Shown here: positions 22,467-57,061 of the stretch, in pieces
Layout of the letters: each line of letters begins with the position of its first letter
How positions within the stretch are numbered: the first letter of the stretch is position 1
DNA from: a virus
Length of the DNA stretch: 64,000 nucleotides
IMG/VR virus record: IMGVR_UViG_3300033571_012928
Coordinates: 2,586-66,585 of that record
Strand: one strand, 5' to 3'
Program-made: the position numbers and the translations under genes
Notes under the pieces: generated by a model
What the model was told of the DNA's origin: nothing
The model's database searches: none
What the model saw: the letters and a program-made list of their open reading frames with translations, nothing else

Positions 22467-22467
22467 T

Positions 22468-29634: not shown

Positions 29635-29637
29635 TTT

Positions 29638-34966: not shown

Positions 34967-35592
34967 GACATGACATTTCACAATTAACAGAACAGCTTCA
35001 AAAAGAAGCATTTAAGCCTAGTTCATTTATTGAAATAGGATCGAGAGACGGGCATGATACTAATTACATATGTCAGTATTGGAATTTAGATCCGAATAAC
35101 TGCTATATTATAGAAGCACATCCTAAGTGCTTTGAATTTATTCAACGTACATATCCTCAGTATAAATCATTAAATGTAGCCGCATCAAATAAAACAGATG
35201 TAATTACATTCAATGCAGGTATTATAGGACAAGAACCAAATGTAGGAGTTTCTTCCGTATTAACAAATCCAACGAGTAACTTTATTTCAGAAACTGTAGA
35301 AGTAGATGCATGGCGTATGGAAGATATTATGAATCACTTTAATATAGATAAATTTGACTTTATGAAAATAGATGTCGAAGGCCATGGTTTAGAAGTATTA
35401 AAAGGATTTGGAGATAAAATAAAACAAACTAAGTACATACAAATCGAAGTAGAAACATTAGAAGTATGGACAGGTCAGTCATTACAAGAAGACATTGTAA
35501 ATTATATGGAAACATTAGGATTTGAAATGATTAACGATGTAAACTTAGATGGCATACAACATGACATTTTACTAAAAAACAAATTAATATGA
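34963..35592 (+). CDS. FkbM-family methyltransferase
   Basis: IEIGSRDGHDT ... MKIDVEGHGLEVLKG is characteristic of FkbM MTases. Confidence 0.65.
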   Translation: MRHDISQLTEQLQKEAFKPSSFIEIGSRDGHDTNYICQYWNLDPNNCYIIEAHPKCFEFIQRTYPQYKSLNVAASNKTDVITFNAGIIGQEPNVGVSSVLTNPTSNFISETVEVDAWRMEDIMNHFNIDKFDFMKIDVEGHGLEVLKGFGDKIKQTKYIQIEVETLEVWTGQSLQEDIVNYMETLGFEMINDVNLDGIQHDILLKNKLI

Positions 35593-36656
35593 TATCAATT
35601 ATTATACCAGCACATAACAATTTAAGGCATTTAAAAAATGCATATGCATCAGTAAAGAAACATGCTCCTGAAGCTGAAGTAGTCTTATTAGATGATGCAT
35701 CAACAGACGGAACTTGGGAGTGGATAGAATCATTGAATGATGATAAACTAATTAGTTATAAAAGTCCTACTAGAGATGGTCATACTGTATTGTATGACAT
35801 GGGTATTCAACTAGCTACAAATGACATAGTTGGCATAATGCATGCGGATATGATAATGGGTCCGAATTATGTTGAGAACGTTATAAAGCACTTAAAGCCA
35901 GGTACAGTAGTATGTGCGACTAGGATTGAGCCACCTCTTCATCCTCCGGGAAAAGAAAAGATAATTATGGACTTTGGAATGGACTTTGATTCTTTAAATG
36001 TATTAGGATTTGAACAGTATTGCGATGAATTGCAAATTGAATTTAAAGATCAAACTACAAAAGGAATGTTCGCTCCATGGGTCTTATATAAAGAAGACTT
36101 TGAAAGAATAGGCGGGCATGATTGGGGATTCGCTCCTTTTCCATATGAAGATTCTGATATCTTTCAAAGATGGATATTAGCTGGATATGAACTAGTTCAA
36201 TCTAGAGATGCATTTGTATATCACTTAACATGTAGAGGACATAGATGGACCGGAGAGATTGGTAAGAATGATGATTACTTTACGCATGCTGAGTTCATGG
36301 CTAGAAACTATTACATTAAGAAATGGGGAAGTTGGATTGAAAACAATGAATATGGCCATCCTATTTTAAAGCCAGTATATACTAAATGTGCTATTGTTAA
36401 AAACTATCAATTAACGGTTATGGATCCATGGCTAGGTGATATCAATCCTAAAGATACTAGCAAGTATGATATAGTAGTTGAATTAGATCTTAAAACAGTG
36501 ACTAATGCTGAGTTTACAGCACTAACATATTTAAATGAAATGGTAGCCGAAGCTAATGAATTGGGTACTTATGAAATAGGACTAATGAAAGTACATGTAA
36601 ATTCATTAGAAGATCGTAGCCATGAATTAATACACTGCAACAATGAAGCATCTTAA
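35589..36656 (+). CDS. GT2-family glycosyltransferase
   Basis: ISIIIPAHNNLRHLKNAYASV ... LLDDASTDGT is a classic GT2 start plus DxD. Confidence 0.7.
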   Translation: MISIIIPAHNNLRHLKNAYASVKKHAPEAEVVLLDDASTDGTWEWIESLNDDKLISYKSPTRDGHTVLYDMGIQLATNDIVGIMHADMIMGPNYVENVIKHLKPGTVVCATRIEPPLHPPGKEKIIMDFGMDFDSLNVLGFEQYCDELQIEFKDQTTKGMFAPWVLYKEDFERIGGHDWGFAPFPYEDSDIFQRWILAGYELVQSRDAFVYHLTCRGHRWTGEIGKNDDYFTHAEFMARNYYIKKWGSWIENNEYGHPILKPVYTKCAIVKNYQLTVMDPWLGDINPKDTSKYDIVVELDLKTVTNAEFTALTYLNEMVAEANELGTYEIGLMKVHVNSLEDRSHELIHCNNEAS

Positions 36657-39731: not shown

Positions 39732-39923
39732 ATGGACAACAAAACAGTTTTTGAAATTTACACTGAGATGGAAGTGTTATGGGAATCATTCAAAGCAAAT
39801 CATGCTATTTATGCTGAAAAAGAAAACAAATCAGCTGCTGGTAGAGCGAGAAAAGCTATCAACGAATTAAAGAAGCATGTAACGGCTTACAAAAAAGCAT
39901 CAGTAGAATCAACCAAAAAGTAA
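39732..39923 (+). CDS. hypothetical small protein
   Basis: ORF. Confidence 0.4.
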   Translation: MDNKTVFEIYTEMEVLWESFKANHAIYAEKENKSAAGRARKAINELKKHVTAYKKASVESTKK

Positions 39924-41080: not shown

Positions 41081-42079
41081 ATGGCGTACGACTTATCTAA
41101 TCTATACATTTCACAATCCTACCAACAACTATTACAGGTTAGTGCATCTACAATAACAGATGGAACGGGGTCTTTGCTTTCTACTTTATTTTTAAATGGA
41201 AATAAGATAGTAACAGAAAATACTATTACGGCTATTTCTGCAGTAACTAGTTCTATATCGGCATTAAATGCTTGGACAGGATCTAATGTATATAGAACAG
41301 GATCATATACCGGATCATTTACGGGTACATTTATAGGTTCTGTTGTTAGTGCATCATATGCAGCATCTGCATCTGTTTCAATAAGTTCATCGGTAGCATC
41401 TACTAGTATTTCTAGTTCATTTGCAACTACTGCAGCAAGTTCAGTAACGGCTTCATATGTATTAAACGCAGTTAGTTCGTCATATGTATTAAACGCAATC
41501 AGTGCTTCATATTCTATAAGTGCATCTAATTCAATTAGTAGTAGCAATGCAATAACAGCTAGTTATGCATTGAATGCAGGTACAGTAACAGCAGGATTTC
41601 CATTTACAGGATCGGCTCAAATAACAGGTTCGTTAGGTGTTACAGGTTCTATTAACTCAACTAGTATTACATCTTCATTGTTTGGTACTGGATCATGGGC
41701 GGTATCTAGTTCAAGGTCTATTACAGCTTCAAATGCAGTTACTGCTTCATATGCAACATATGCATTGACAGCTGGAACAGTTGCGGTATCAGGTCAAATT
41801 GCGCCATCTGGAAGTGCAATTGCAGCTACCCAATCTCCTTTAAACTTTTTCGCAGGAGGTGGTTTAACTGCAGGTTCTCCGCCATCATTAGTTATCAATG
41901 TACCGGGCTTAAATGGAAAAACATTGAGTACAAATGCATTTATTTCTGCGGTAATGACAGGATCCGATGCTGCGGTGATGAATAATTACATTGCCGTAAG
42001 TGGATTAGCACCAAATGGTAATATTACATTTGTATCACAAGGACCAATTCAATTTACATTTACTGGAATTTACTTTTAA
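41081..42079 (+). CDS. Ser/Ala/Thr-rich repeat protein, possible fibre/structural protein
   Basis: Imperfect repeats (T/S)ASY(A/V)LNA(V/I)S and ITGSLGVTGS; 332 aa. Confidence 0.5.
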   Translation: MAYDLSNLYISQSYQQLLQVSASTITDGTGSLLSTLFLNGNKIVTENTITAISAVTSSISALNAWTGSNVYRTGSYTGSFTGTFIGSVVSASYAASASVSISSSVASTSISSSFATTAASSVTASYVLNAVSSSYVLNAISASYSISASNSISSSNAITASYALNAGTVTAGFPFTGSAQITGSLGVTGSINSTSITSSLFGTGSWAVSSSRSITASNAVTASYATYALTAGTVAVSGQIAPSGSAIAATQSPLNFFAGGGLTAGSPPSLVINVPGLNGKTLSTNAFISAVMTGSDAAVMNNYIAVSGLAPNGNITFVSQGPIQFTFTGIYF

Positions 42080-42642: not shown

Positions 42643-43299
42643 ATGAAATTAGTATTAGAGAAAGATCAAAGAGTATTTTTCATTTCAGATACTCATTATA
42701 ATCACGCTAACATTTGCAGTGCCACAACCAAATGGCCGCCATCAGACAAGTATTCTAGTAGAGATTTTCCTTCTCTAGAAGCAATGAACAGTAAATTGGT
42801 TGACAATATCAATTCAGTTGTAGGTCAAAATGATGTATTGTTTCACTTAGGAGATTGGAGCTTTGGAGGATTTGAAAGCATTGAAGATTTCCGCTCTAGA
42901 CTTGTTTGTAAGAACATCCACCTTATCTTGGGTAATCATGATCATCATATTGAGAATAATAAAGGAGACGTTCAAAATCTATTCAAGTCCGTTCATCATT
43001 ATGTTAATCTTAATCTAAAGCGTCCTAGTAGATATGGCAATGGACAAATGGACAAATACAATTTTATTTTATGTCATTTTCCAATTGCTTCTTGGGATAG
43101 AATGAAAGATGGAGTAATTCATTTGCATGGGCATGTTCATTTGCCTCCGCATTATAGAATTGCACAAGGTAGAGCAATGGATGTAGGATGTGAAGGTAGT
43201 GGATTAATGCCGATTGAATTGGAAGAGGTTCTTCGTTTAATGAAGAATCAGCCCGTTAAGGCTTTGAGTTTGCCAATGGATCATCATGAAATGGTTTAA
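42643..43299 (+). CDS. calcineurin-like metallophosphoesterase
   Basis: FISDTHYNH, LGDWSFGG, LGNHDHH, HGHVH metal-binding motifs. Confidence 0.75.
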   Translation: MKLVLEKDQRVFFISDTHYNHANICSATTKWPPSDKYSSRDFPSLEAMNSKLVDNINSVVGQNDVLFHLGDWSFGGFESIEDFRSRLVCKNIHLILGNHDHHIENNKGDVQNLFKSVHHYVNLNLKRPSRYGNGQMDKYNFILCHFPIASWDRMKDGVIHLHGHVHLPPHYRIAQGRAMDVGCEGSGLMPIELEEVLRLMKNQPVKALSLPMDHHEMV

Positions 43300-43304
43300 A
43301 AGTT

Positions 43305-43703
43305 ATGAAAAAAGAAATAATATACACAGAACACTATGCACTTATTGTAAGTGATGAGAAGATTGAAGAGGGTAGTTTTATTTACGAAACAAATATTGGT
43401 GAAGTAAGTAAGGTTGACAAATGGTATTGTGAAATTTTAGAAAAAGGCGTAAAAGTAGAACCTTTTGTTAAAGTAATTGCACACCGACCATTAACAAATG
43501 CACCTATTCTTGAAGGAGTTCCTTTGTTACCTGATATAGCATGGAATGACAATTCAAAACATCCTAAGTATTTTGAGTGTGAAACTATCACAATGAACAA
43601 AGGGTACACTGATAAATCAGATTATCCTTATCAAGAATGTGAAATACCAAAAACAATCACTAACTCACAAGGTCAAACAGAATTAGTAGGAACTTTTTCT
43701 TGA
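43305..43703 (+). CDS. hypothetical protein
   Basis: ORF. Confidence 0.5.
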   Translation: MKKEIIYTEHYALIVSDEKIEEGSFIYETNIGEVSKVDKWYCEILEKGVKVEPFVKVIAHRPLTNAPILEGVPLLPDIAWNDNSKHPKYFECETITMNKGYTDKSDYPYQECEIPKTITNSQGQTELVGTFS

Positions 43704-43705
43704 AT

Positions 43706-43744
43706 TCGGTTGTTTATTTGAAAAAAAGATATTATCTTTATGTT
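43706..43744 (+). promoter_or_regulatory. class-B promoter element (partial)
   Basis: TCGGTTGTTTATTTGAAAAAAAGATATTATCTTTATGTT. Confidence 0.4.
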
Positions 43745-44164
43745 ATGAATAAGGTTTTAGTGATTTTAAGGGGACTTCCGGGAGCTGGTAAGTCTTCATT
43801 TGCTAATTTGATTTGGCAATCAGGAGTTATATTTGAAGCTGATAAGTACTTTATCAACGAAGAAGGTGAGTATGTATTTGATGCTTTTAAATTACCTAAA
43901 GCACATCAGTGGTGTATTCAATCAATTGAAGCTGCTATGAAAAGAAATGAAGAATCAAATGGTCAATACTTTTCAGAAATAGTAGTTTCAAATACAACTA
44001 CTACCGAGAAAGAAATGCAACCTTATTTAGACTTAGCTAAGGCATATGGATATAATGTTGTTTCTTTGATTGTAGAAAATAGACATGGTAATGTTTCAGT
44101 ACATGGAGTTGCTGAAGAAACAATGGATAAAATGGAAAAACGTTTTGAAATAAAATTACGATAA
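43745..44164 (+). CDS. P-loop kinase (polynucleotide/nucleoside kinase-like)
   Basis: VLVILRGLPGAGKSSFA Walker A; ~140 aa kinase-domain size; start set at the ATG after the promoter box. Confidence 0.55.
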   Translation: MNKVLVILRGLPGAGKSSFANLIWQSGVIFEADKYFINEEGEYVFDAFKLPKAHQWCIQSIEAAMKRNEESNGQYFSEIVVSNTTTTEKEMQPYLDLAKAYGYNVVSLIVENRHGNVSVHGVAEETMDKMEKRFEIKLR

Positions 44165-44168
44165 GAAA

Positions 44169-45017
44169 ATGTTAACATTAAATTTAATAAATCAACTTAA
44201 ATCTGATATCAAATATGAAATCAGTAAGTTCCCTGATGGTCAGCAATCAATTGTATTGACAGATTACAATCATTTAGACCGTTATTCCGATGCAATATCT
44301 ATTAAGACTAGAATCAATTCATTTTTAGACTTAGAAATTTTAATATGTGCAACTCAAGCGCTTCGTACTATTACAGATAGACCAATTGCATTATATGTGC
44401 CATATTTCCTAGGATCAAGGTCAGATCGTAAATTTGTAGACGGCGGAGTAAATTATTTGAAGCAAGTAATTAGTCCTATCATTAATTCATTGGATTTTAC
44501 TAGAGTCGTTGTATTAGATCCTCACTCAGATGTATTAGAAGCTTGTTTAAACAACTTTGAAAAAGCAGATAATCATTTAATTGTTAAATATGCATTGGAA
44601 GACTTAGGCGTAATTAATTCAGTAGATGAGGTTTGTTTAGTTAGTCCCGATGCAGGTGCATATAAAAAGATTTTTGATGTTGCTCGTAAATTTGGTATTG
44701 AAAAGATTATCACTGCAACCAAAGTACGAGATATGAAGACAGGTAATATTCTTCATACTGAGATTCCAGTTTTAGATCAGCATGAAGATCTTAAGTATAT
44801 TATCATCGATGACATTTGCGATGGCGGTAGAACATTTGTTGAATTAGCCAAGGCAATCAAAGCAGGTCGACCAACGGCTAAGATTTACCTAATTGTAACA
44901 CATGGTATCTTTAGTGCAGGATATGACCAATTGAGTGAGTATGTTGATCGAGTTTATACTACCAATTCATATAAAGACATTGATCATTCATTTGTACAAC
45001 AATATACTGTAATCTAA
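44169..45017 (+). CDS. ribose-phosphate pyrophosphokinase (PRPP synthetase)-like; candidate ADPR-pyrophosphate synthetase (Adps)
   Basis: IIIDDICDGGRTFVELAKAIKAG equals the Prs PRPP-binding loop (VLVDDMIDTGGT); 282 aa. Confidence 0.6.
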   Translation: MLTLNLINQLKSDIKYEISKFPDGQQSIVLTDYNHLDRYSDAISIKTRINSFLDLEILICATQALRTITDRPIALYVPYFLGSRSDRKFVDGGVNYLKQVISPIINSLDFTRVVVLDPHSDVLEACLNNFEKADNHLIVKYALEDLGVINSVDEVCLVSPDAGAYKKIFDVARKFGIEKIITATKVRDMKTGNILHTEIPVLDQHEDLKYIIIDDICDGGRTFVELAKAIKAGRPTAKIYLIVTHGIFSAGYDQLSEYVDRVYTTNSYKDIDHSFVQQYTVI

Positions 45018-45019
45018 TT

Positions 45020-45538
45020 ATGATAAATTACGTAGACGGCGATGTAGTTAAACTAGCCAAAGAAGGAGCATTTGATGTAGTAGTACATGGATGTAATTGT
45101 TTAAGCACTATGGGTGCGGGAGTAGCGCCTCAAATGGCTAAAGCATTTGGGTGTGATAAATTTGAAATGGAAAGGTCAGGTCCATCGATACATAAACTAG
45201 GTAATATCGACTATGAGACTTTGTATTTTGAAGATAACAAAACTTGGACTAAATACCCGGACGAAGGTGGAAAGTGGGCTACAATTAAATTAACAGTAGT
45301 AAATGCTTATACACAGTACATGTATGGACGCAACCATGTTGACGGTGTAGCAGCGCCATTCGACTATGAAGCATTTACCGTCTGTATGAGAAAGATGAAT
45401 CATATTTTTAAAGGTAAGCATATTGGAATGCCTAAGATTGGCTCGCATTTAGCCGGCGGCGATTGGGAACAAATAGAAGAGATTATCGGAATAGAATTAT
45501 CAGATTGTAAAGTAACAGTTGTAAATTATAAACCATGA
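45020..45538 (+). CDS. Macro-domain protein
   Basis: VVHGCNCLSTMGAGVAPQMAKAFG matches the macro N(x)6GGGV ADP-ribose-binding pattern. Confidence 0.6.
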   Translation: MINYVDGDVVKLAKEGAFDVVVHGCNCLSTMGAGVAPQMAKAFGCDKFEMERSGPSIHKLGNIDYETLYFEDNKTWTKYPDEGGKWATIKLTVVNAYTQYMYGRNHVDGVAAPFDYEAFTVCMRKMNHIFKGKHIGMPKIGSHLAGGDWEQIEEIIGIELSDCKVTVVNYKP

Positions 45539-45942
45539 TGCAAGACCATATTAACGTAGATCGAATTATAGGAATTCGAATTTATGACGAACGGGGTGCA
45601 GCTTATAAATGGCTACCAGCTAAACAAAAAACTACATTCTTTGGACTTATTAAATTAAACAAATGGTATTCGGAAGGGTTTTATGCCTATGGATGTTATG
45701 AAGAAGGTTATGGAGATTCGAGTTGGGATTCTAGTGCATACACAGAAAGCGAATTAATACAACGAGATTACTTAGTAAGAGGTAAGGATGTATTTCATAA
45801 ACCATATGTTATTGTGTATTTGCAAGATGATATTTCAATATCAAAAAAGTTTAACACATTACATGAAGCCCAATCATGGGTCGAACAATTGAAATCAAAA
45901 TGTAAAAATCAATTTGAAATTATAAACTATGAAAGTATTTAA
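45535..45942 (+). CDS. hypothetical protein
   Basis: ORF. Confidence 0.5.
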   Translation: MMQDHINVDRIIGIRIYDERGAAYKWLPAKQKTTFFGLIKLNKWYSEGFYAYGCYEEGYGDSSWDSSAYTESELIQRDYLVRGKDVFHKPYVIVYLQDDISISKKFNTLHEAQSWVEQLKSKCKNQFEIINYESI

Positions 45943-46423
45943 ACCAAATGACCTGTATCAAGAAGTACCTGAGAATACGGTATCTGTATTTTTAGCAGGA
46001 TCCATTGAAATGGGCACAGCTGAAGATTGGCAAAGCAAAGTACAAGAACAACTTAAGTACAGTGACATTGTAATTTTTAATCCACGTCGTGATGATTGGG
46101 ATTCATCTTGGGTACAACAACAGTCTAATCCACAATTTAATCATCAAGTAAATTGGGAAATGGATAAGCTTGAAGATGCAGACATTATCTTTATGTATCT
46201 CTCTCCTGAAACTAAATCTCCTATTTCATTATTGGAATTAGGATTACATGCTAATGACAGAAAAATGATTGTATGTTGTCCAGATGGATTTTGGAGAAAA
46301 GGAAACGTAGACATTGTATGTACTCGAAATAACATTCAGTGCTTTACTAATATCGACGATGCAATTGGAGCTCTTCGAACTAGGATTGCAATGGAAAAAG
46401 CAATTCGAAACTCATTATACTAA
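45929..46423 (+). CDS. nucleoside 2-deoxyribosyltransferase-like protein
   Basis: VFLAGSIEMGTAEDW ... FNPRRDDWD resembles the NDT-family Rossmann-like core. Confidence 0.4.
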   Translation: MKVFKPNDLYQEVPENTVSVFLAGSIEMGTAEDWQSKVQEQLKYSDIVIFNPRRDDWDSSWVQQQSNPQFNHQVNWEMDKLEDADIIFMYLSPETKSPISLLELGLHANDRKMIVCCPDGFWRKGNVDIVCTRNNIQCFTNIDDAIGALRTRIAMEKAIRNSLY

Positions 46424-46424
46424 A

Positions 46425-46492
46425 CTTTTTTAACATTTCGGTTGATCTTTTGAAATAAAGCTATTATCTTTATAGCATAATAAGAAAAATAT
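46425..46492 (+). promoter_or_regulatory. class-B conserved intergenic promoter element
   Basis: TTTTAACATTTCGGTTGATCTTTTGAAATAAAGCTATTATCTTTATAGCATAATAAG. Confidence 0.5.
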
Positions 46493-47989
46493 ATGAATCC
46501 ACTTTTATTAACAGATGGTTACAAAACGGGTCACCATCAGCAGTACCCAAAAGGAACTACATTAGTTTATTCTAATTTTACTCCTCGTTCAAATAAATAC
46601 GCTCCTAAAGGTTGCAATGAAGTAGTTGTATTTGGTACACAAATGGTTATGCAACAAATTCACGAAGCATTTAAAAAAGATTTCTTTAGTAGACCTAAAG
46701 AAGAAGTATGCGGAGAAATGAAACGTGAGTTGTCAATGTATTTAGGTACTGACTATGATGTAAGTCATTTTGAAGCATTACATGATTTAGGTTGTTTACC
46801 TATTAGTGTTAAAGCATTGCCCGAAGGTAGTAAGGCTCCTATTAAAGTTCCTGTATTAACTATTCATAACACTCATCCGGACTTTTATTGGGTTACGAAT
46901 TATTTAGAGACTATCTTGTCTAACTTGTTATGGAAGCCAATGACGTCAGCAACTATTGCTCATCAGTATCGTAAAGTATTGACCAAGTGGATGGAAAAGA
47001 CCGACAAAGAAAGAGCATGGTTTATTGATTGGCAGGGTCATGACTTTTCAATGAGAGGAATGGATTCTGCGGAAGCAACTATTGCATCTGGTTTAGGTCA
47101 CTTAACTTCATTTTTAGGATCAGATTCATTACCAACTATTTATGGTGCTAGAAAGTATTACGATGCTGAAGGAATGGTTTGTGGCTCTGTAAATGCTACC
47201 GAGCATAGTGTAATGTGTGCTGGCGGTAAGGAAGATGAAGTTGACACATTCCGTAGATTGTTAGAAACTTATCCAACAGGTATTTTATCAGTTGTATCTG
47301 ATACTTGGGACTTGTGGAAAGTATGTACCGAGCATGTAGTTACTTTGAAAGAAGAAATTATAGCTCGCGATGGTAAGTTGGTTATTCGTCCTGATAGCGG
47401 TGATCCGGCTGATATTTTATGTGGCTTAAACACAGCAAGCTCAATGTGGACAAAGGATATCACAATGAAACCTGAGTGGAAGGGTGTTATTGAATTACTT
47501 TGGGATGTATTTGGTGGGACAGTAAACGAACAAGGTTATAAAGTTCTTGATAGTCACATTGGAGCAATCTACGGTGATTCAATTACCATTGATAGAGCAG
47601 ATGAAATTTGTAGACGTTTAGAGGCTAAAGGGTTTGCTTCAACTAACGTAGTATTAGGTATTGGTTCATTTACTTACCAATACAATACTAGAGATACATT
47701 TGGATTCGCAATGAAGGCTACCTATGTTGAAGTTAATAAGCCTAAGTTTGAAGGCGACTTTAATCCTGAGGGTAGAGAGATTTTCAAAGATCCTATCACC
47801 GATGATGGTACTAAGAAATCAGCAACCGGGTTGTTAGCTGTATTTGAAAATGAAGTAAATGGTACCTATGAACTAGTTGATCATTGCGATTGGAATACAG
47901 AGAACCGCGGTGAATTGAAAGTTATTTATGAGAACGGTAAGTTTGATAATAGAGTAACTTTAGAAGAAATCAGAGAACGTTTAAAATAA
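46493..47989 (+). CDS. nicotinamide phosphoribosyltransferase (NAMPT/NadV)-family protein; candidate Namat
   Basis: N-terminal LLLTDGYKTGHHQQYP matches the NadV TDSYK.THyxQYP motif; 498 aa. Confidence 0.75.
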   Translation: MNPLLLTDGYKTGHHQQYPKGTTLVYSNFTPRSNKYAPKGCNEVVVFGTQMVMQQIHEAFKKDFFSRPKEEVCGEMKRELSMYLGTDYDVSHFEALHDLGCLPISVKALPEGSKAPIKVPVLTIHNTHPDFYWVTNYLETILSNLLWKPMTSATIAHQYRKVLTKWMEKTDKERAWFIDWQGHDFSMRGMDSAEATIASGLGHLTSFLGSDSLPTIYGARKYYDAEGMVCGSVNATEHSVMCAGGKEDEVDTFRRLLETYPTGILSVVSDTWDLWKVCTEHVVTLKEEIIARDGKLVIRPDSGDPADILCGLNTASSMWTKDITMKPEWKGVIELLWDVFGGTVNEQGYKVLDSHIGAIYGDSITIDRADEICRRLEAKGFASTNVVLGIGSFTYQYNTRDTFGFAMKATYVEVNKPKFEGDFNPEGREIFKDPITDDGTKKSATGLLAVFENEVNGTYELVDHCDWNTENRGELKVIYENGKFDNRVTLEEIRERLK

Positions 47990-48037: not shown

Positions 48038-48460
48038 ATGAAAAAGTTTATATACTTAGACGATGTAAGAACTCCTAATGACGAAGGTTGGGTTGTAGTT
48101 AGAAACTATGACGAATTTGTAAATACAATTACCGAAATTGGTCTAGAGAATATTGAGCTTATATCTCTAGACCATGATTTGGGTGATACTGCCATGATGG
48201 AATGGCATACTAATGTTGCTCGTAACTTTACTTTGAACTATGATAATATCAAAGAAAAGACAGGAATGGATTGTACTAAATGGTTAGTAGAACAGTGGAT
48301 GAATGGCGCACCTGTATGTAAAGTAATGGTACATTCAGCTAATGCAATCGGATCCGCTAACATGATGGGTTATATCAATAACTTTAAACACATTAGTAGA
48401 TTGAATCAAGATTGTGGTAGATGGATTGTTCCTCATACAATCGAAACTGTAATTGACTAA
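48038..48460 (+). CDS. hypothetical protein
   Basis: ORF; IYLDDVR ... ISLDHDLGD segments of unknown function. Confidence 0.5.
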   Translation: MKKFIYLDDVRTPNDEGWVVVRNYDEFVNTITEIGLENIELISLDHDLGDTAMMEWHTNVARNFTLNYDNIKEKTGMDCTKWLVEQWMNGAPVCKVMVHSANAIGSANMMGYINNFKHISRLNQDCGRWIVPHTIETVID

Positions 48461-48485: not shown

Positions 48486-49625
48486 ATGGAAAATCAAAAT
48501 AGTGTATGCTACGTAGCAAGAATAGGTGAAGTTAAACCTATCGAAGGAGCTGATAATATTGAACAAGCATTCGTAGGAGGATGGAGTTGTATTGTCCCAA
48601 AGGGTCAATATAAACAAGGATATTTGGCTGTTATAGCAACTACCGATGCAGTTATTCCTCAAGAATTATCAGATCTAATGAATGTAACCAATTACTTGCG
48701 TAAAGGTCAAAGAGTAAGAACGGTTAAGTTGAGAGGTGTTTATTCAGAATGTTTAATTATTCCTTTTGATAAATTACTTTTACCTAAAACATTCGTAGAT
48801 AATGTTAAAGAAGGTAAGGACATGATGGAAATGTTAGGTATCTACAAATATGAACCACCTGCGGTACAAGTACAATTGGCATCTGGTCGTAAAGTTAAGT
48901 ATCATCAGAATCCTAATTTTGGTATTTACTATAAATTTCCTAATTTGAAAAACGTACCCGGCATGTATTCAAATGAAGATGAAGTAGAAATTACTAGAAA
49001 AATTCATGGTACTAATGCTCGTTATGGTATTGTAAAGAAAAAGTCTTTGTCATTCTGGGATAAAGTTAAAAAGTTTTTGAGATTAGCTGATGAGTTCATT
49101 GAATATGAATATGTATATGGATCCCATAACGTAGAAAAAGGATCTGACTCTCAAGGATTTTATGACACTGATGTATGGAAGACCGTAGCTGAAAAGTATA
49201 ACATAAGAGAAAACTTATGGAACTTATTCAAGTCAGTTAAAGATGTATACAGTATTGAGCAAGGATTTGTAATCTATGGAGAGATCTATGGTCCAGGTAT
49301 TCAAAAGAATTTTGACTATGGTTTAAAAGAAATTGAATACGCAGGATTTGATGTAACCATCGATGGGGAGTACTGTGACTGTAAAAGAAGTTTCATGCTT
49401 CATAACATATTAGGTTTAGATTATGTACCTGTTTTATACTATGGAAACTGGTCTCAAGAAACTCAAGACAAGTATGTATTTAACAATTTCATCGAAGGCA
49501 CTAAAGTTCCTCACGAAGGCATTGTAATTAAGCCAATAGATGGTAATAGACATAAAGTAGCTAAGGTAATCAATCCGGATTATTTAATCTATGGAGAGAA
49601 ACATAACGTAGGAGATTCACATTAA
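48486..49625 (+). CDS. RNA ligase (Rnl2-like nucleotidyltransferase) with N-terminal extra domain
   Basis: KIHGTNARYG is identical to the T4 Rnl2 motif I lysine-adenylylation site (KIHGTN). Confidence 0.65.
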   Translation: MENQNSVCYVARIGEVKPIEGADNIEQAFVGGWSCIVPKGQYKQGYLAVIATTDAVIPQELSDLMNVTNYLRKGQRVRTVKLRGVYSECLIIPFDKLLLPKTFVDNVKEGKDMMEMLGIYKYEPPAVQVQLASGRKVKYHQNPNFGIYYKFPNLKNVPGMYSNEDEVEITRKIHGTNARYGIVKKKSLSFWDKVKKFLRLADEFIEYEYVYGSHNVEKGSDSQGFYDTDVWKTVAEKYNIRENLWNLFKSVKDVYSIEQGFVIYGEIYGPGIQKNFDYGLKEIEYAGFDVTIDGEYCDCKRSFMLHNILGLDYVPVLYYGNWSQETQDKYVFNNFIEGTKVPHEGIVIKPIDGNRHKVAKVINPDYLIYGEKHNVGDSH

Positions 49626-50280: not shown

Positions 50281-51432
50281 ATGAGCATAGTTCAAAATTC
50301 AAATGAATTCAACATTGCGGATGTAACCGCAACTTATTCAAGGTTACCGAAAGGTAATTATCTTCTTCGTTATGATCAGCGTAAGGGATATTATTTAACA
50401 AAGACTACAGATTTCAAATTGCCTAGTAAATTATATGGCGATCATGGTATTGTTGATAGATGGTTATCATCTTGGAATCATAATACTAACAAGAACATGG
50501 GTATTATTTTATCAGGTACTAAAGGTACTGGTAAAACTATTACCGCCCAGAAGTTTTGTTTAGATTCTGAGTTACCTGTTATTATCATTAACGAAGGATT
50601 TTCGGGTAGTGACTTTGTAGAATTTATAACCAATGAAGTTATGGGACAGTGTATCATTTTTATTGATGAGTTTGAAAAGGTTTATCCTAGATACAGTGGT
50701 AAAGCAGATGCATCTGATTTGTTATCTATCATGGATGGTAATTTCACTACCAGATTAGTATTTCTATTAACAGTTAATGAATTTGAAATCAGTGATTACT
50801 TGATTAATCGTTTAAGTCGTGTTAAGTATAGAAAAGACTACAATAACTTATCTGATGCAGATATGCAGGAAGTTATTAATGACATGCTCGATAATAAAGA
50901 TCATGCTGATAGTATCTATGAGTTCTTTGATACGGTAGGTATTAGAACGTATGACTTATTAACTAATTTGATTAAGGAAATGAACCTATTCAAAGAAGAT
51001 GCAATTGCAGTGGGTATGCATTTGAATCTTCAGCCATCACCTAAAAAGTATACAGTGTATGAATTGCATGATGGTACTGAATTTAGTTGTTATGAATGTG
51101 AGTATAAAGCTAAGACCGAATTGATTAGAATTGAGCGTAAGTCAATGAAATACTTAACAGCTAAAAGAATTGCATTAGGATTAGATGCTTCAGATGAGTA
51201 TGACGAAGATGAAGATGACGATGAATTGACATTGCCATCACTTGGCATTGAAGAAGAAAATGACGATAGTAATCCTAATGTAGTTTTAGATGCAATGGGT
51301 TGGGTAGCGAAGATGCGTAGAGAAGATTGTAAAATCGAACGTCATGGAGTTGATAATATTCTTATTACACATATTCCATCTGGGTGTGTATTTAGATTAA
51401 AAGAAGCTACTAAAACTTATATGGCTTTTTAA
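50281..51432 (+). CDS. AAA+ ATPase with acidic linker
   Basis: Walker A ILSGTKGTGKTITA, Walker B IIFIDEFEK; DEYDEDEDDDE tract. Confidence 0.65.
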   Translation: MSIVQNSNEFNIADVTATYSRLPKGNYLLRYDQRKGYYLTKTTDFKLPSKLYGDHGIVDRWLSSWNHNTNKNMGIILSGTKGTGKTITAQKFCLDSELPVIIINEGFSGSDFVEFITNEVMGQCIIFIDEFEKVYPRYSGKADASDLLSIMDGNFTTRLVFLLTVNEFEISDYLINRLSRVKYRKDYNNLSDADMQEVINDMLDNKDHADSIYEFFDTVGIRTYDLLTNLIKEMNLFKEDAIAVGMHLNLQPSPKKYTVYELHDGTEFSCYECEYKAKTELIRIERKSMKYLTAKRIALGLDASDEYDEDEDDDELTLPSLGIEEENDDSNPNVVLDAMGWVAKMRREDCKIERHGVDNILITHIPSGCVFRLKEATKTYMAF

Positions 51433-51434
51433 TT

Positions 51435-51797
51435 ATGAAAACGATTGCTTGTATTGCCCATGATGGTAAGAAACCTGAAATGGTTAGATTTGTTCATAAA
51501 CATCATGACATTCTTAAAAATTATAATCTTATTGCCACGGGCACTACGGGTACTCATATTGAACAAGTAGGTGACTTAACTGTCACAAAATACAAAAGCG
51601 GTCCGTTAGGTGGGGATGCACAAATTGCTTCGTTAGTTGTCGAAGGTAAAGTTGATTTGGTTGTATTTTTAGTTGATCCATTAGATGTGCATCCTCACCA
51701 GGTTGACGTAAGCATGTTAGTACGTATCTGCAATGTACACGACATTCCATTAGCTACAAATGTAGCAACTGCGGAACTGTTGTTAAAAGCTCTTTAA
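51435..51797 (+). CDS. mgsA: methylglyoxal synthase-like protein
   Basis: IATGTTG, SGPLGGDAQI, DPLDVHPHQVDV and LATNVATA each match E. coli MgsA (YATGTTG, SGPMGGDQQ, DPLNAVPHDPDV, VATNVATA). Confidence 0.75.
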   Translation: MKTIACIAHDGKKPEMVRFVHKHHDILKNYNLIATGTTGTHIEQVGDLTVTKYKSGPLGGDAQIASLVVEGKVDLVVFLVDPLDVHPHQVDVSMLVRICNVHDIPLATNVATAELLLKAL

Positions 51798-51854
51798 GAT
51801 TAAGTATACATTAATTTAGTAAATAGCATATACTAGTCGAATAGTTATATATAG

Positions 51855-52559
51855 ATGAAAACATTAGTTATATCAGATCTTCATATAGGATCAAAAGGAT
51901 GTCAAACGGAGGCTATTTTAAATTTACTATCAGATGAAACATATGACCGATACATATTAGTAGGTGATATTATCGATGGTTGGTTGTTTGTTAAGTATAA
52001 ACGATTTACATATGAACATGCTCGTGTAATTCGTAGACTACTTAAATTATCAAAAGACAAAGAAATTATTTGGATATCAGGCAATCATGATGAGTTCTTG
52101 CGTAAGTATTCTCCGTTAGAATTAGGTAACATTAAGATTGTAGATGAGTATACAGAACATGGCATATGGTTTTGTCATGGCGATATGTATGATGGAGTAG
52201 TTAAACTACATTGGTTAGGAGTATTAGGATCCGTTGGATATGATACGGCAATAGTAATAGATCGATGGTTAAAAAAATTAGGATACAAAAGAAGCTTATC
52301 TAAGTTTTTAAAGAAAAATGTAAAAGCTGCAGTTTCATTTATTGTTGATTTTGAAAATGAAATGGTTAGACAAGCTAAAAAGCGTCAGTGCCATACGATA
52401 GTATGTGGTCATTTACATAATCCTGAAGATAAAATAGTTAACGGAGTTCGTTATATCAATGATGGCGATTGGGTTGAAAATTGCTCTTATGTTGTGTATG
52501 AAACAAAAAAATACAATTTAGACAATCCAATACTAACATTATGTACTCAAAAAAATTAA
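51855..52559 (+). CDS. calcineurin-like metallophosphoesterase
   Basis: LVISDLHIGSKG, GDIIDGW, GNHDE, GHLHNP. Confidence 0.7.
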   Translation: MKTLVISDLHIGSKGCQTEAILNLLSDETYDRYILVGDIIDGWLFVKYKRFTYEHARVIRRLLKLSKDKEIIWISGNHDEFLRKYSPLELGNIKIVDEYTEHGIWFCHGDMYDGVVKLHWLGVLGSVGYDTAIVIDRWLKKLGYKRSLSKFLKKNVKAAVSFIVDFENEMVRQAKKRQCHTIVCGHLHNPEDKIVNGVRYINDGDWVENCSYVVYETKKYNLDNPILTLCTQKN

Positions 52560-53254
52560 CCATCGTAATACCAACGTACAATGAATCTAAATACATTGCA
52601 CGTACATTATTAGAAATTGTTAAACAATCTGGAACATATGGCGTGCAAATAATCATTGCCGATGCTAATTCTACCGACAATACTAGAAATGTAATTAAAG
52701 AAACAGCTAAAAAGTTAAAACTTAAAGTTAGAATTATCAAAGGCGGTATGCCAGCCGTTGGTAGAAATGCGGGAGCGGCACTAGCAACTACGCCATATGT
52801 ATTGTTTGTGGATGCAGATGTTAAGTTTACTAATAGATATGCTATTAAATCTGCAATGCAATGCATTGAAGAAGACTATGATATGGTTACTACCAATCCT
52901 GTATATGATGGCGAACCTGATATACGAGCACGTATCATGTTTATGATAAACAAGTATATTACATTGGCGATGTCTAAACATACTCCATTTGCTATAGGAG
53001 CATTTACATTGGTCAAGTTAAGTAAGTTTGTTGAGTTAGGTGGATATGATGTAAATGCATATCAAAGCGAAGATTGGCTTTTAAGTAAACAAGTAGCTAC
53101 AAATAAGTTTAAAGTAATTACTGATTTAATAACGCAGGATAATCGCAGATTTAAACGATTCGGATATATGGCTATGATTAAAATGTTATATTCAAATTGG
53201 ATCAATAGAAATAACATTAATCACTTTTACAAGGACAATGGTTACTGGAAATAA
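52541..53254 (+). CDS. GT2-family glycosyltransferase
   Basis: LTIVIPTYNESKYIARTL and VDADV DxD motif. Confidence 0.65.
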   Translation: MYSKKLTIVIPTYNESKYIARTLLEIVKQSGTYGVQIIIADANSTDNTRNVIKETAKKLKLKVRIIKGGMPAVGRNAGAALATTPYVLFVDADVKFTNRYAIKSAMQCIEEDYDMVTTNPVYDGEPDIRARIMFMINKYITLAMSKHTPFAIGAFTLVKLSKFVELGGYDVNAYQSEDWLLSKQVATNKFKVITDLITQDNRRFKRFGYMAMIKMLYSNWINRNNINHFYKDNGYWK

Positions 53255-53318
53255 AAGTTAACTTTTCGGTTGATCTTTTGAAATAATGATATTATCTTTA
53301 TATCATAATAAGAAAGAT
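53253..53318 (+). promoter_or_regulatory. class-B conserved intergenic promoter element
   Basis: AAAAGTTAACTTTTCGGTTGATCTTTTGAAATAATGATATTATCTTTATATCATAATAAGAAAG. Confidence 0.5.
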
Positions 53319-54044
53319 ATGCCAAGAATTTACAAAGTAGGTGGTTGCGTTAGAGATAGGTTATTAGAGATCGAATCTAAAGACATTGATTTTACCTTCG
53401 TATTAGACAACTTAGACAGAACCGTCGAAGAAGGTTTTGATATTATGACTAATTGGTTAGAACATAAAGAATTTACTATCTTTTTATCTACTCCAGAATG
53501 TTTTACTATTAGAGCTAAGTTTCCAAATGGTCATCAATACGAAGGAATGGTAGCTGATTTTGTATTGGCTCGTAAAGAAGTAGGATATGTACCTGGTACC
53601 AGAAGACCAATTTTAGAATTAGGTACGTTAGAAGATGACTTAAGGCGCAGAGACTTTACCTTAAATGCTTTAGCTGAAGATGAGGACGGAAACATTATTG
53701 ATTTGTTTGGAGGTATTGAAGATTTAAAGCGTGGTTATTTAAGAACACCATTACCATGTACCGATACTTTCAATGACGATCCGCTTCGTATTTTGAGAGC
53801 AATTCGTTTTTGTATTACTAAAGGATTTTGGATTGGACCTGCAATGGATGGAATTATCCAAGACTATGATTATGAAACTAAAATGACTGTAGTATCAATT
53901 GAACGGATCCGAGAAGAATTGTATAAGTGTTTCAAACATGATACTTTAAAGACTCTTAAAACATTACATGAGTATCCAGCTTTGAGAAACTATATTTTCG
54001 AATCAGGTGCATTGTGGTTGAAGCCAACCATGGAAAAAAGTTAA
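53319..54044 (+). CDS. Pol-beta-superfamily nucleotidyltransferase, CCA-adding enzyme / poly(A) polymerase head-domain-like
   Basis: MPRIYKVGGCVRDRLL equals the tRNA-NT GGxVRD motif; start moved from 53286 because the earlier ATG lies inside the promoter repeat. Confidence 0.55.
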   Translation: MPRIYKVGGCVRDRLLEIESKDIDFTFVLDNLDRTVEEGFDIMTNWLEHKEFTIFLSTPECFTIRAKFPNGHQYEGMVADFVLARKEVGYVPGTRRPILELGTLEDDLRRRDFTLNALAEDEDGNIIDLFGGIEDLKRGYLRTPLPCTDTFNDDPLRILRAIRFCITKGFWIGPAMDGIIQDYDYETKMTVVSIERIREELYKCFKHDTLKTLKTLHEYPALRNYIFESGALWLKPTMEKS

Positions 54045-54090
54045 CATTTCGGTTGTTTATATGAAACATTGATATTATCTTTATAGCGTA
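54035..54090 (+). promoter_or_regulatory. class-B conserved intergenic promoter element
   Basis: AAAAAGTTAACATTTCGGTTGTTTATATGAAACATTGATATTATCTTTATAGCGTA. Confidence 0.5.
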
Positions 54091-54711
54091 ATGATAGATA
54101 ATATAGATTTAATAAAACCTTTGCTCAATTTTGAAAATGACGGCGACTTTTATATGTTGTACGTATTCAAAAGAAAAAAGGATCAAGCAACCGATAAAGC
54201 AAATCATCAATCGGTGAGAACCATTAAGACATATGTAGTTGAAAGTATTGATTACCTGGAGAAAAGATATGATGAAATTAAACAGTTATGTGAAATGTTT
54301 AATGCTCGTGCTTATATTCATATCCAGAAACAAAATCACAAAGACGTTTCATTAGATATGTTAGTGGCTCTCGCCGAGAAGATCAAGAATGGCCAACATG
54401 TACAGACTCATTTATTTGATTCTGTAGTAGGTCAAATGAAGACCTATGAAAAGCGTTGGATCATTGACATTGACACTAAGTCTATTCATATACGAAACAT
54501 GATAGTGAATATTATCGAAAGTGTTAGACCAAATGATAATGGCAGTAAAATCGAAGCAACTATTCCTACCAAAAATGGTGTTCATTTGATTACTAGTAGA
54601 TTTGATGTTATGGAATTTAGTAAACAATTAACTCAACGAGGAGAAGAAGTTCCTGATATTCAAAAGAAGAATCCAACCTTACTTTATTTACCTAATTCTT
54701 TGGATAATTGA
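54091..54711 (+). CDS. hypothetical protein
   Basis: ORF. Confidence 0.5.
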   Translation: MIDNIDLIKPLLNFENDGDFYMLYVFKRKKDQATDKANHQSVRTIKTYVVESIDYLEKRYDEIKQLCEMFNARAYIHIQKQNHKDVSLDMLVALAEKIKNGQHVQTHLFDSVVGQMKTYEKRWIIDIDTKSIHIRNMIVNIIESVRPNDNGSKIEATIPTKNGVHLITSRFDVMEFSKQLTQRGEEVPDIQKKNPTLLYLPNSLDN

Positions 54712-54734
54712 AATAAATAACTTATATTAAAACT

Positions 54735-54953
54735 ATGATAACAAAAATATTACATATCATGTATGTACTAATGATATTGGTTTATTTAGTACTTGTTAGT
54801 AATTTCTTCATTGATGTGGCATTACCACTTATCAATATGGCTAGTACAGGTGCGGTATTTCTAGGAGCTGGTATGTTACTAGTGCCAGTACTGATAGTAC
54901 TAGTAGTAGCTGTTCTTCTTCCTAAGTACATTAAAACACATATTCTAAAGTAA
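54735..54953 (+). CDS. small membrane protein
   Basis: Two TM helices. Confidence 0.45.
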   Translation: MITKILHIMYVLMILVYLVLVSNFFIDVALPLINMASTGAVFLGAGMLLVPVLIVLVVAVLLPKYIKTHILK

Positions 54954-54957
54954 ATCT

Positions 54958-55386
54958 ATGGGAATTATTATTGTATTAGCAATCGCCGCGATGATCGCAC
55001 TTACTGTATTGTACATGTTCCAATTTTATGGAGACTTGGGTGGTAATAATGAAAAGCGAATCAAAGATGGCCTAGTTAAGGAACTAATAACAAAAGCAGT
55101 AAACCATCCGGATCCAGATTCATATGTTGTTAATAAGGATGCTGAAACTATTTTAATGCATAGATTTATAATTGAATCACACTATGAACAATTGTTTTGG
55201 TTTCCATATGTAGTAAAAAAACTACCATTAGATTTTCGACAAAGACAAACCGAAGATGACTGGGGAGGAACAGTAGGATATGTTACTAGATTCAGTAAAG
55301 ACTATTATCTTATCAAATCAATACTAAAAAAATCCAAAGCAAGTATTGAACAAACACAAAGACAAAAACTAAATTTAAACAAATAA
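54958..55386 (+). CDS. membrane-anchored hypothetical protein
   Basis: N-terminal TM helix. Confidence 0.45.
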   Translation: MGIIIVLAIAAMIALTVLYMFQFYGDLGGNNEKRIKDGLVKELITKAVNHPDPDSYVVNKDAETILMHRFIIESHYEQLFWFPYVVKKLPLDFRQRQTEDDWGGTVGYVTRFSKDYYLIKSILKKSKASIEQTQRQKLNLNK

Positions 55387-55388
55387 GA

Positions 55389-56240
55389 ATGAATCCATTA
55401 ATTAAGATTGCTGCTATACTAGGTATAGTATTAGTAGCGGGTTTCACAGTCATTGGTTTAGAAAGAATCGATGCAGGTCATGTAGGTATCAAAGTTAATT
55501 TGATTGGTACTGGTAAGGGAGTAGATAATGCAACCGAAGTTACAGGTTGGGTGTTCTATAACCGATTTACAACTAAAATTGTTGAGTTTCCGACATTTGT
55601 ACAGCATAAAGAGTACAAGAAAGAAGGAGATGTAGACGAGTCGTTTGTAATTAACTCTAAAGATGGATCGGAGTTTCATGTAGGTCCTTTATTAAACTAT
55701 TCAGTGCAGCGTGAGAAAGTTCCTTATATCTTTACTAAATATAGAGTTGAATTAGGTGCTATTGAAGCCGGATTTTTAAAGACTGCCATTTACGATGCAT
55801 TTAGAGTAGTAGCAAATAGTTATACCGCAGATGAATTAATTAGTAATAGAGAACAATTTGAAATTAAAGTTAGAAAGAACCTAGAAAGTCATTTATTACC
55901 TGAAGGATTTATATTAGCTCAATTTACATCTAATTTGGTTTATCCAGAAACATTCAAGAAAGCAATTGAAGCTAAGAACAATGCAGTTCAGACAGCATTG
56001 AGAGCTGAGAATGATGTTAAGACAGCAGAGGCACAGGCTAAGATTAAAATTGCTCAGGCAGAAGGTAATGCTCGAGCAATGTTAACGAATGCTAAGGCAG
56101 AGGCAGAAGCTAACAAATTGAAACAAACCACTTTGACCCCATTGTTATTGCAACAAATGTGGATTCAAAAATGGAATGGTGTATTGCCATCGACTCAATT
56201 AGGCGCTGGTACGAACATGATGTATAATTTAGGAAAGTAA
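55389..56240 (+). CDS. SPFH/Band-7 (prohibitin/HflK-like) membrane protein
   Basis: N-terminal TM, SPFH-like core, and C-terminal AEAQAKIKIAQAEGNARAM coiled coil typical of HflK/C. Confidence 0.6.
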   Translation: MNPLIKIAAILGIVLVAGFTVIGLERIDAGHVGIKVNLIGTGKGVDNATEVTGWVFYNRFTTKIVEFPTFVQHKEYKKEGDVDESFVINSKDGSEFHVGPLLNYSVQREKVPYIFTKYRVELGAIEAGFLKTAIYDAFRVVANSYTADELISNREQFEIKVRKNLESHLLPEGFILAQFTSNLVYPETFKKAIEAKNNAVQTALRAENDVKTAEAQAKIKIAQAEGNARAMLTNAKAEAEANKLKQTTLTPLLLQQMWIQKWNGVLPSTQLGAGTNMMYNLGK

Positions 56241-56257
56241 TTTAGTTACGTATTTGA

Positions 56258-56292
56258 AAGGCCTCGGAGAAATCCGGGGTCTTTTACTGTAT
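56258..56292 (+). terminator. intrinsic terminator
   Basis: GGCCTCGG-AGAAAT-CCGGGGTC hairpin followed by TTTTACT. Confidence 0.55.
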
Positions 56293-56340
56293 AATCGTTC
56301 GTCTAATGAACTTAACAAAGTTACGTGATAATTAGGAAAT

Positions 56341-56727: not shown

Positions 56728-56793
56728 CTTTTCGGTTGACCTTTTGAAGATTTGATATTATCTTTATATCATAATTAAGAAATAAGAAAGAAT
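56718..56793 (+). promoter_or_regulatory. class-B conserved intergenic promoter element
   Basis: AAAAAGTTAACTTTTCGGTTGACCTTTTGAAGATTTGATATTATCTTTATATCATAATTAAG. Confidence 0.5.
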
Positions 56794-57060: not shown

Positions 57061-57061
57061 T

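Follow-up and report, generated by a model that had tools for sequence, protein, structure and literature searches.

An extended NARP1-AP-type NAD+ reconstitution operon with a recurrent NDT-like partner gene predicted in an uncultivated phage

Introduction

Which functions do genes serve that lie between the two enzymes of a phage pathway for the reconstitution of nicotinamide adenine dinucleotide (NAD+)? This question is raised by a locus in the viral record IMGVR_UViG_3300033571_012928 (IMG/VR), of which we analysed positions 2,586 to 66,585. This stretch of 64,000 nucleotides is called the window here, and positions are counted from its first letter unless another sequence is named. An original prediction, made from the letters alone, had read two proteins of this locus as the NARP1 enzymes Adps and Namat and had proposed that a Macro-domain protein and a protein resembling nucleoside 2-deoxyribosyltransferases (NDT), encoded between them, may extend the pathway. 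Our analysis supports, with a probability of about 0.65, the view that five genes (44169-47989) make up a NARP1-AP operon for NAD+ reconstitution in an extended form. The core of the locus is ordinary, one more NARP1-AP operon; what is new is mainly the NDT-like gene as a recurring partner and, less so, an orphan open reading frame (ORF).

Results

Organisation of the locus

The five genes are listed below with the lengths of their products in amino acids (aa); the activities given are predictions.

44169..45017, plus strand: Adps-type enzyme resembling phosphoribosyl pyrophosphate synthetases (PRPS), 282 aa, predicted to convert ADP-ribose (ADPR) and ATP to ADPR-pyrophosphate (ADPR-PP)
45020..45538, plus strand: Adpp-like Macro-domain protein, 172 aa, predicted ADPR-1''-phosphate phosphatase
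45535..45942, plus strand: orphan ORF, 135 aa
45929..46423, plus strand: NDT-like protein of family PF15891 (Nuc_deoxyri_tr2), 164 aa, predicted N-glycosidase or transferase
46493..47989, plus strand: Namat-type nicotinamide ADP-ribose transferase, 498 aa, predicted to form NAD+ from nicotinamide and ADPR-PP

Their packing is operon-like, with, in order, a gap of 2 bp, overlaps of 4 bp and 14 bp and a gap of 69 bp. The Macro gene begins 3 bp past the Adps stop codon. The Adps-like and Namat-like genes are 1,475 bp apart, Namat being the fourth gene downstream of Adps. A scan for consensus promoters and terminators at the operon boundaries revealed nothing above chance. The ORF positions and motifs quoted in the original prediction were correct: DDICDGGRT corresponds to residues 214-222 of the 282-aa protein, and 46493..47989 encodes a 498-aa protein starting MNPLLLTDGYKTGHHQQYP. 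At 43745, where it had the locus begin, lies the start codon (ATG) of a gene for an AAA_33 kinase-like protein, which it passed over, and the 135-aa ORF between the Macro and NDT-like genes was absent from it.

The window is AT-rich (about 32% GC) and 97% coding, with 111 predicted genes, every one on the plus strand. A metagenomic scaffold of 175,196 bp and a JGI contig of 56 kb also encode an identical Namat protein. Because of the scaffold, we take the source to be an uncultivated phage with a genome of at least 175 kb. A DNA-level search of cultured phages detected no relative of the locus, only patches of about 100-200 bp inside Namat.

The Adps-like protein

Structural work on the Adps of phage ICP1 identified a retained PRPS acceptor groove, a remodelled pyrophosphate (PP) loop and the catalytic lysine (K) 185; the C-terminal alpha11-alpha12 module is lost, which was proposed as a signature of the Adps family (Liu et al., PMC13586617). 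Namat is found within 10 genes for 97% of Adps-clade proteins (Osterman et al. 2024).

Searches with the 282-aa protein of the window matched the Pfam families Pribosyltran and Pribosyl_synth, but only around threshold, and PHROG 619 'ribose-phosphate pyrophosphokinase' with 5.8e-68. It remained under the cut-off of all 11 curated NCBIfam Prs models; for TIGR01251 (cut-off 113 bits) it scored 87.9 bits, compared with 98 for the validated ICP1 Adps and 423 for E. coli Prs. Individual alignments showed 29-33% identical aa with the Adps proteins of ICP1, SPbetaL1, FADO and Thalassa and 21% with E. coli Prs. The ICP1 contact residues F21, R84, F89, H119, D161, I194, D214, D215, D218 and F223 are kept, and the catalytic lysine (K185 in ICP1, K162 in SPbetaL1) is present. 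The C-terminal tail following the last conserved aspartate comprises 23 aa, as compared with 23-35 aa in Adps homologues and 49 aa in E. coli Prs. The PP loop CDGGRTF is that of Felixounavirus pinkbiff, a genus to which we presume Bas63 to belong as well. In this comparison by sequence only, in which pairwise identities and profile scores served as proxies for placement in the Adps clade, the protein resembles validated Adps enzymes and not canonical Prs.

The original prediction had proposed to recognise a plain PRPP synthetase by its full set of canonical Prs residues for binding ribose-5-phosphate. These residues cannot discriminate, because validated Adps retains them and binds ADPR with them (PMC13586617).

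Among cultured phages, the closest Adps homologue (43-49% identical) is found in Leptolyngbya phage Lbo-JY46. There (positions 2817-7026) Adps is located downstream of Namat with two hypothetical genes between, and the protein is longer (341 aa).

The Namat-like protein

In the solved structure of the SPbetaL1 Namat, the adenine of ADPR-PP is recognised by a selectivity clamp (Lan et al., PMC12774641). Its two elements are a helix with the motif GS-X-phi-X-phi-X-phi-TRD and a variable loop donating a stacking residue, either R or a K/Y with an aromatic residue after it (PMC12774641).

The 498-aa protein matched NAPRTase (2e-36), NAMPT_N (2.9e-9) and PHROG 448 (2.4e-198). Its best solved relative is the SPbetaL1 Namat (9w5x, 1.6e-155), with human and Xanthomonas NAMPT following at about 1e-60 to 1e-65. 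About 52% of its aa are identical to those of the SPbetaL1 and FADO Namats, both of which have been validated experimentally. In a six-way alignment, 20 of the 20 published NAD+ contact positions are conserved or replaced as in other NARP1 Namats; R40 is replaced by K35 followed by Y36, as in FADO, and A362 by serine, as in FADO, ICP1 and Thalassa. The Nampt-like core residues (D13, Y15, F189, R192, D215, R306, D308 and the catalytic histidine, in SPbetaL1 numbering) are all conserved, the histidine within TEHSV. The clamp helix GSFTYQYNTRD is identical to those of SPbetaL1 and FADO, and the clamp loop reads TPRSNKY, with SNKY as in FADO. Judged by these residues, the protein is a Namat.

Thus the pairing claimed by the original prediction passed every sequence-level membership test that we ran, with features of the Adps type in one protein and of the Namat type in the other, and the two proteins very probably act as NARP1.

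In ICP1, the gene after Adps (locus L002, positions 4799-6118) is annotated as 'hypothetical protein'. As annotated, its 439-aa product is without the roughly 50 N-terminal residues among which the D13, Y15 and clamp-loop positions lie, and it has a cysteine at the arginine of the clamp motif (TCD instead of TRD).

The Macro-domain protein

When defence proteins with a RES domain split NAD+, the products are nicotinamide and ADPR-1''-phosphate, and the latter is no substrate for Adps; in about 15% of NARP1 operons a Macro phosphatase resembling Poa1p, named Adpp, is encoded, which converts ADPR-1''-phosphate to ADPR, and this arrangement, in the order Adps-Adpp-Namat, was named NARP1-AP (Osterman et al., bioRxiv 10.64898/2026.01.28.702374). 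The order Adps-Macro-Namat, as published for NARP1-AP, is also found in Vibrio phage Thalassa.

The Macro protein of the window gave a weak Pfam match (19.5 bits; cut-off 22) and a clear match to PHROG 335 'phosphatase' (2.2e-38). It is 33% identical to the biochemically validated Adpp of Vibrio phage Gary, relative to which it has an insertion of about 18 residues. It could be aligned over its full length with seven proteins from Table S1 of the aRES preprint, and these eight NARP1-associated Macro proteins share 11 invariant columns. A joint profile including the window protein matched the solved macrodomain BT1257 with 3.9e-24 and Poa1p (6lfu) with 1.3e-12. On this evidence from homology the protein probably acts as Adpp, a phosphatase of ADPR-1''-phosphate. 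The proposal that the Macro gene extends the pathway thus holds in spirit, but this extension had already been published as the Adpp of NARP1-AP.

The NDT-like protein and its gene neighbourhoods

A Pfam search assigned the 164-aa protein clearly to PF15891 (126 bits, cut-off 30; 6.9e-37), and no NCBIfam model matched it. Its structure model, predicted with high confidence (mean predicted local distance difference test score, pLDDT, 89.4), has the NDT fold. Foldseek matches were the putative NDT 4mcj (1e-14), YtoQ, MilB (1e-4), BlsM, NDTs and DNPH1. The sole solved close relative, 4mcj (BDI_0649), is an uncharacterised structural-genomics protein, and the literature on YtoQ, followed up as a lead, gave no function for it. 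The nearest characterised fold neighbours are the nucleoside 5'-monophosphate (NMP) N-glycosidases MilB (CMP and hydroxymethyl-CMP) and BlsM, followed by NDTs and DNPH1. MilB, BlsM, DNPH1 and 4mcj share with the window protein the fold and apparently a conserved helix motif containing a glutamate; the identity to MilB, BlsM and DNPH1, however, is only about 10-18%, and PF15891 has invariant motifs of its own (NPRRxxWD, QVxWE and CCPxGFWRKGN). Across 38 homologues at 60-95% identity about 50 positions are invariant, among them E103 in SLLELG, a candidate counterpart of the catalytic glutamate nucleophile of NDT, DNPH1 or MilB. The family is large: the protein search gave more than 8,000 matches, and reference genomes yielded 451 loci.

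To analyse the gene neighbourhoods in viruses, 52 contigs were picked solely for encoding a relative of the NDT-like protein and their ORFs were clustered, which together with the window gave 53 loci. The families most often co-located with NDT were Namat (40 loci), Adps (26) and Macro (22); the next family was found in 14. NDT adjoins Namat directly or is one small gene apart from it, in two gene orders, and the remaining flanking genes vary. When NDT proteins were collapsed at 90% identity, Namat was located within 2.2 kb in 29 of 36 viral lineages. A scan of one genome per prokaryotic species yielded 451 loci, the best 80 of which were examined. Among these 80, 20-22 hold Adps, NDT and Namat together, all in Bacteroidota (Aquimarina, Chitinophaga and a Flavobacterium metagenome-assembled genome among them), and in 20 Namat directly follows NDT, the intergenic gaps being about 10-40 bp. 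Nine of the Bacteroidota loci, and others besides, contain an island of the type NrtR-Adps-NADAR-KptA/Tpt1-(2-oxoglutarate oxygenase)-Metallophos-(DUF4291)-NDT-Namat-Macro-ARH, where ARH stands for ADP-ribosylglycohydrolase. The clamp motif is present in 37 of the 38 viral Namats adjacent to NDT and in all 20 bacterial ones.

The literature searched does not describe this linkage of NDT with NARP1, although the neighbourhood may be treated in de Souza & Aravind 2012 or Aravind et al. 2015; Table S1 of the aRES preprint covers Macro neighbours only. Viruses have been said to carry only cyclase-type members of the superfamily (Iyer et al. 2022, PMC9503650).

Several observations weigh against the five genes forming one extended pathway. 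The nearest solved relatives of the Macro protein are uncharacterised macrodomains (BT1257) that score above Poa1p, and its family is broad, with 2,313 phage records including T4-like phages, in which the Macro gene adjoins the vs (valyl-tRNA synthetase modifier) gene. The viral NDT loci were retrieved by similarity to the NDT of the window, and the linkage may in part be inherited synteny. Seven cultured phages carry an NDT-like gene without a NARP1 gene within the 5-8 kb fetched per side, and 44 of 64 bacterial loci with a called NDT ORF are without Namat. The active-site motifs of the NDT-like proteins are also the same in every genomic context, which suggests a single activity whose substrate is a common metabolite and not a specialised immune signal.

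The alternative that has survived best is that the NDT-like protein is an unrelated enzyme of the nucleotide pool, for example a (deoxy)NMP N-glycosidase like DNPH1 or MilB, and merely lies in the same block of auxiliary metabolism. The closest characterised folds are indeed NMP N-glycosidases, most bacterial NDT-like genes have no NAD neighbours, and in phage DLP_6 the gene is found among those for PhoH, an exonuclease, a dCMP deaminase and ribonucleotide reductase; the window itself also encodes a deoxynucleoside monophosphate (dNMP) kinase and GTP cyclohydrolase I. However, Namat, Adps and Macro are by far the commonest viral neighbours while other flanking genes vary, and the adjacency of NDT and Namat persists through a change of gene order and recurs in the ADPR-centred, NrtR-linked islands of Bacteroidota. 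We regard an unrelated nucleotide-pool enzyme as unlikely, and a functional coupling of the NDT-like protein to NAD+ reconstitution as somewhat better than an even chance. The suggestion of the original prediction that the NDT-like gene may extend the pathway gains real support from the gene neighbourhoods.

Some further arrangements of NDT-like genes were observed. Tandem duplicated NDT-like genes lie beside Namat in three viral contigs, and Xanthomonas phage X1 (locus L059, positions 5001-5902) carries a pair of neighbouring paralogues, of which the second is 30% identical. A membrane protein of about 630 aa, Band-7/flotillin-like by eye, is encoded between Namat and NDT in six viral loci; other viral loci have a small protein of about 90 aa with a lipoprotein-like N-terminus at this place. 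In Tunturiibacter phage Tunturi_5 (locus L060, positions 4977-8765) a protein of 1,262 aa, with the annotation MutT/NUDIX hydrolase, has an NDT-like domain as its N-terminus. Its gene adjoins the portal gene, and the protein may be polyvalent or head-packaged.

The orphan ORF

The 135-aa protein showed no match in Pfam, PHROG or NCBIfam, and only 20 homologues were detected among 5.8 billion proteins. Homologues are encoded in NARP1 neighbourhoods of 7 other viral loci; a scan of viral contigs with the ORF gave one weak locus. Its confident AlphaFold model (pLDDT 89.3) consists mostly of beta strands with a C-terminal helix and matched no solved structure at E <= 0.001. A homologue of RyDEP or of a sponge protein was considered and rejected, as the protein has no recognisable domain, no fold match and only these 20 homologues; for a RyR/R12 domain in particular, there was neither a Pfam nor a fold match.

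Flanking genes and RNA repair

The five genes are flanked by the following genes.

42643-43299, plus strand: Metallophos phosphoesterase (Pfam/PHROG matches)
43305-43703, plus strand: 132-aa ORF without assigned function
43745-44164, plus strand: AAA_33 kinase-like protein (Pfam/PHROG matches)
48038-48460, plus strand: protein with a cREC_REC cyclic-phosphate-processing domain (PF20274, 1.5e-23)
48486-49625, plus strand: RNA ligase (PHA02142 oligonucleotide-binding fold and RNA_ligase)

The upstream neighbours (42643..44164) look like RNA-repair genes; they and the two downstream genes are candidate members of the module. The arrangement Metallophos/AAA_33/Adps recurs in three further viral loci and in Thalassa. 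The cREC domain has been predicted to open cyclic phosphates including ADPR-1'',2''>P (PMC9503650).

These neighbours raise the second alternative, in which the main business of the locus is to keep the books of RNA repair and not counter-defence: an NAD+-consuming removal of RNA 2'-phosphates would yield ADPR-1'',2''>P, cREC would open it, Macro would dephosphorylate the product, and Adps and Namat would rebuild NAD+. Besides the phosphoesterase, the AAA_33 kinase-like protein, cREC and RNA ligase around the operon, whose recurrence in other phages fits this view, viral loci also bring Thg1, HAD_SAK_2 and NADAR, in the Bacteroidota islands Adps, NDT and Namat are accompanied by KptA/Tpt1, NADAR, Macro and ARH, and Poa1p itself works in tRNA splicing. 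However, a scan of the window revealed no homologue of KptA/Tpt1, NADAR, ARH or Nudix (nor, beyond these, of NrtR, Thg1 or YqeY); the activity of cREC on ADPR>P is itself a prediction (PMC9503650), and experiments with other phages have directly demonstrated anti-defence phenotypes of NARP1 and NARP1-AP. RNA repair, although compatible with an extended NARP1-AP operon, is quite improbable as the explanation of the locus.

Very improbable is an ordinary or NARP2-like salvage, in which the Prs-like protein would make PRPP, the NAMPT homologue nicotinamide mononucleotide (NMN) and a host or phage NMN adenylyltransferase (Nmnat) would complete NAD+: Pfam and NCBIfam label the proteins as Prs and NAPRTase-like, Namat enzymes keep PRPP activity in vitro (PMC12774641), and an Nmnat gene could sit elsewhere in the genome of at least 175 kb, of which the scan covered 64 kb, but the Prs-like protein is under every Prs cut-off and is without the C-terminal module of Prs, the clamp for adenine recognition, the defining feature of Namat, is complete, no Nmnat/CTP_transf_like domain was detected in about 46 larger ORFs of the window or in the precomputed Pfam list for about 36.5-58 kb, and Osterman et al. 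(2024) encountered no phage having both pathways.

Other features of the window

The genes for nucleotide-sugar synthesis and glycosyl transfer at 21081-36656 form a block that, at about 16 kb, is unusually large for a phage. It encodes several glycosyltransferases (GT) of families GT1, GT2 and GT4, a short-chain dehydrogenase, a hexapeptide acyltransferase, a PIG-L deacetylase, two NAD-dependent epimerase/dehydratases (one of the Polysacc_synt_2 type) and a DUF6492 protein. GTP cyclohydrolase I (2.3e-51) is encoded near a weak radical-SAM match (3001-3786 and 6075-6716), which together, we presume, could point to a 7-deazaguanine or folate-type pathway. The replication block (9398-11968, 15720-16355, 16357-17286, 18794-19402 and 19432-20382) encodes a family-B DNA polymerase, a GIY-YIG/I-TevI-like homing endonuclease, a clamp-loader-like AAA protein, a dNMP kinase and a PD-(D/E)XK nuclease.

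Closer to the locus, an Hc1 histone-like match lies at 39732-39923, and 41081-42079 encodes a 332-aa protein extremely rich in serine, threonine and alanine with reiterated motifs of the types SASY, TASY and GSxxxTGS; several spurious ORFs overlap this gene in other frames. Pfam matches at 50281-57821, where the genes are the same as in locus L066, comprise AAA, MGS-like, Metallophos, GT2, PolyA_pol (tRNA nucleotidyltransferase-type), Band_7 and HSP20. No tRNA or tmRNA genes were detected in the 64-kb window of this large phage genome.

Discussion

Comparison with known systems

The locus shares with NARP1 as described for Bas63, SPbetaL1 and FADO (Osterman et al. 2024) both enzyme families, their order, the functional residues, the clamp and the truncated PRPS scaffold. 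In contrast to these phages, Adps and Namat of the window are not adjacent but split by three inserted genes (1.5 kb). As in the NARP1-AP of Vibrio phage Gary, the Macro gene follows Adps directly and its product is homologous to Adpp and related to Poa1p; the orphan and NDT-like genes between Macro and Namat, however, distinguish the window from Gary. NARP2, which combines a clamp-less Nampt with Nmnat, differs from the window with its clamp and without an Nmnat domain in the scanned ORFs. The 'NAD-salvage islands' of boreal jumbophages were also considered and rejected as counterparts; they carry an NMNAT-Nudix gene and hence are NARP2-like.

A precedent for an inserted glycosidase is RyDEP in the NARP1 operon of phage DyoEdafos, where the embedded enzyme turns a non-canonical NAD+ derivative into a substrate of the pathway (PMC13232231). 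RyDEP is a RyR-domain O-glycosidase, whereas neither of the extra genes of the window has a RyR domain and the NDT-like protein has an N-glycosidase fold. In bacteria, the NrtR-prs-nadV operons (Rodionov et al. 2008, PMC2330246) and bacterial NARP1 (PMC12774641) resemble the Bacteroidota islands in having NrtR beside an Adps-like gene and a clamp-bearing Namat. The islands are much larger and add NADAR, KptA, Metallophos, DUF4291, NDT-like, Macro and ARH genes; an NDT-like member is mentioned in neither PMC2330246 nor PMC12774641.

A model for the extended operon

From family membership, the conservation of published functional residues and the conserved gene linkage, we infer a scheme in which each enzymatic activity, like the anti-defence role of the operon, is a prediction. 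A host defence NADase would split NAD+ into ADPR and nicotinamide; Adps (44169) would convert ADPR and ATP to ADPR-PP, and Namat (46493) would join ADPR-PP with nicotinamide to NAD+. Macro (45020), acting as Adpp, would return the ADPR-1''-phosphate produced by RES-domain NADases to ADPR and so cover those defences as well.

The NDT-like protein (45929) would be the fourth coupled enzyme. For its reaction we prefer the release of nicotinamide from NMN or nicotinamide riboside (NR), which would then be used by Namat; alternatively, it may free ADPR from an N-linked ADPR derivative, such as one produced by a defence system (cf. RyDEP, PMC13232231). Nicotinamide release is favoured because relatives with the NDT-like fold hydrolyse nucleoside 5'-monophosphates, because its conservation outside NAD contexts suggests a common metabolite as substrate, and because NDT would pair with Namat as Adpp does with Adps, giving two pairs of a supplier and a user. 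As a specific assignment it is nevertheless doubtful. Somewhat less tentative is the broader proposal that PF15891 NDT-like proteins could form a third class of NARP1 accessory enzymes after Adpp and RyDEP, as N-glycosidases that widen the range of recyclable substrates.

Implications

NARP1 is a general route by which phages escape NAD+-depleting immunity, including Thoeris, DSR, SIR2-HerA, SEFIR and pAgo systems. Genes inserted in NARP1 operons decide which defences are beaten, with Adpp directed at RES NADases and RyDEP at cyclic ADPR signals. An inserted gene found repeatedly next to Namat, in dozens of divergent phages as well as in bacterial islands, is thus a lead to a further extension of the pathway, and its linkage is likewise a lead to the function of the large, highly conserved and uncharacterised family PF15891. 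If the NDT-like protein is part of the pathway, the trio of Adps, NDT and Namat would be an ancient unit common to phages and to the NrtR-regulated ADP-ribose recycling islands of Bacteroidota. NMN nucleosidase (EC 3.2.2.14) has, to our knowledge, long been without an assigned gene; if the NDT-like protein releases nicotinamide from NMN or NR, this gene would have been found.

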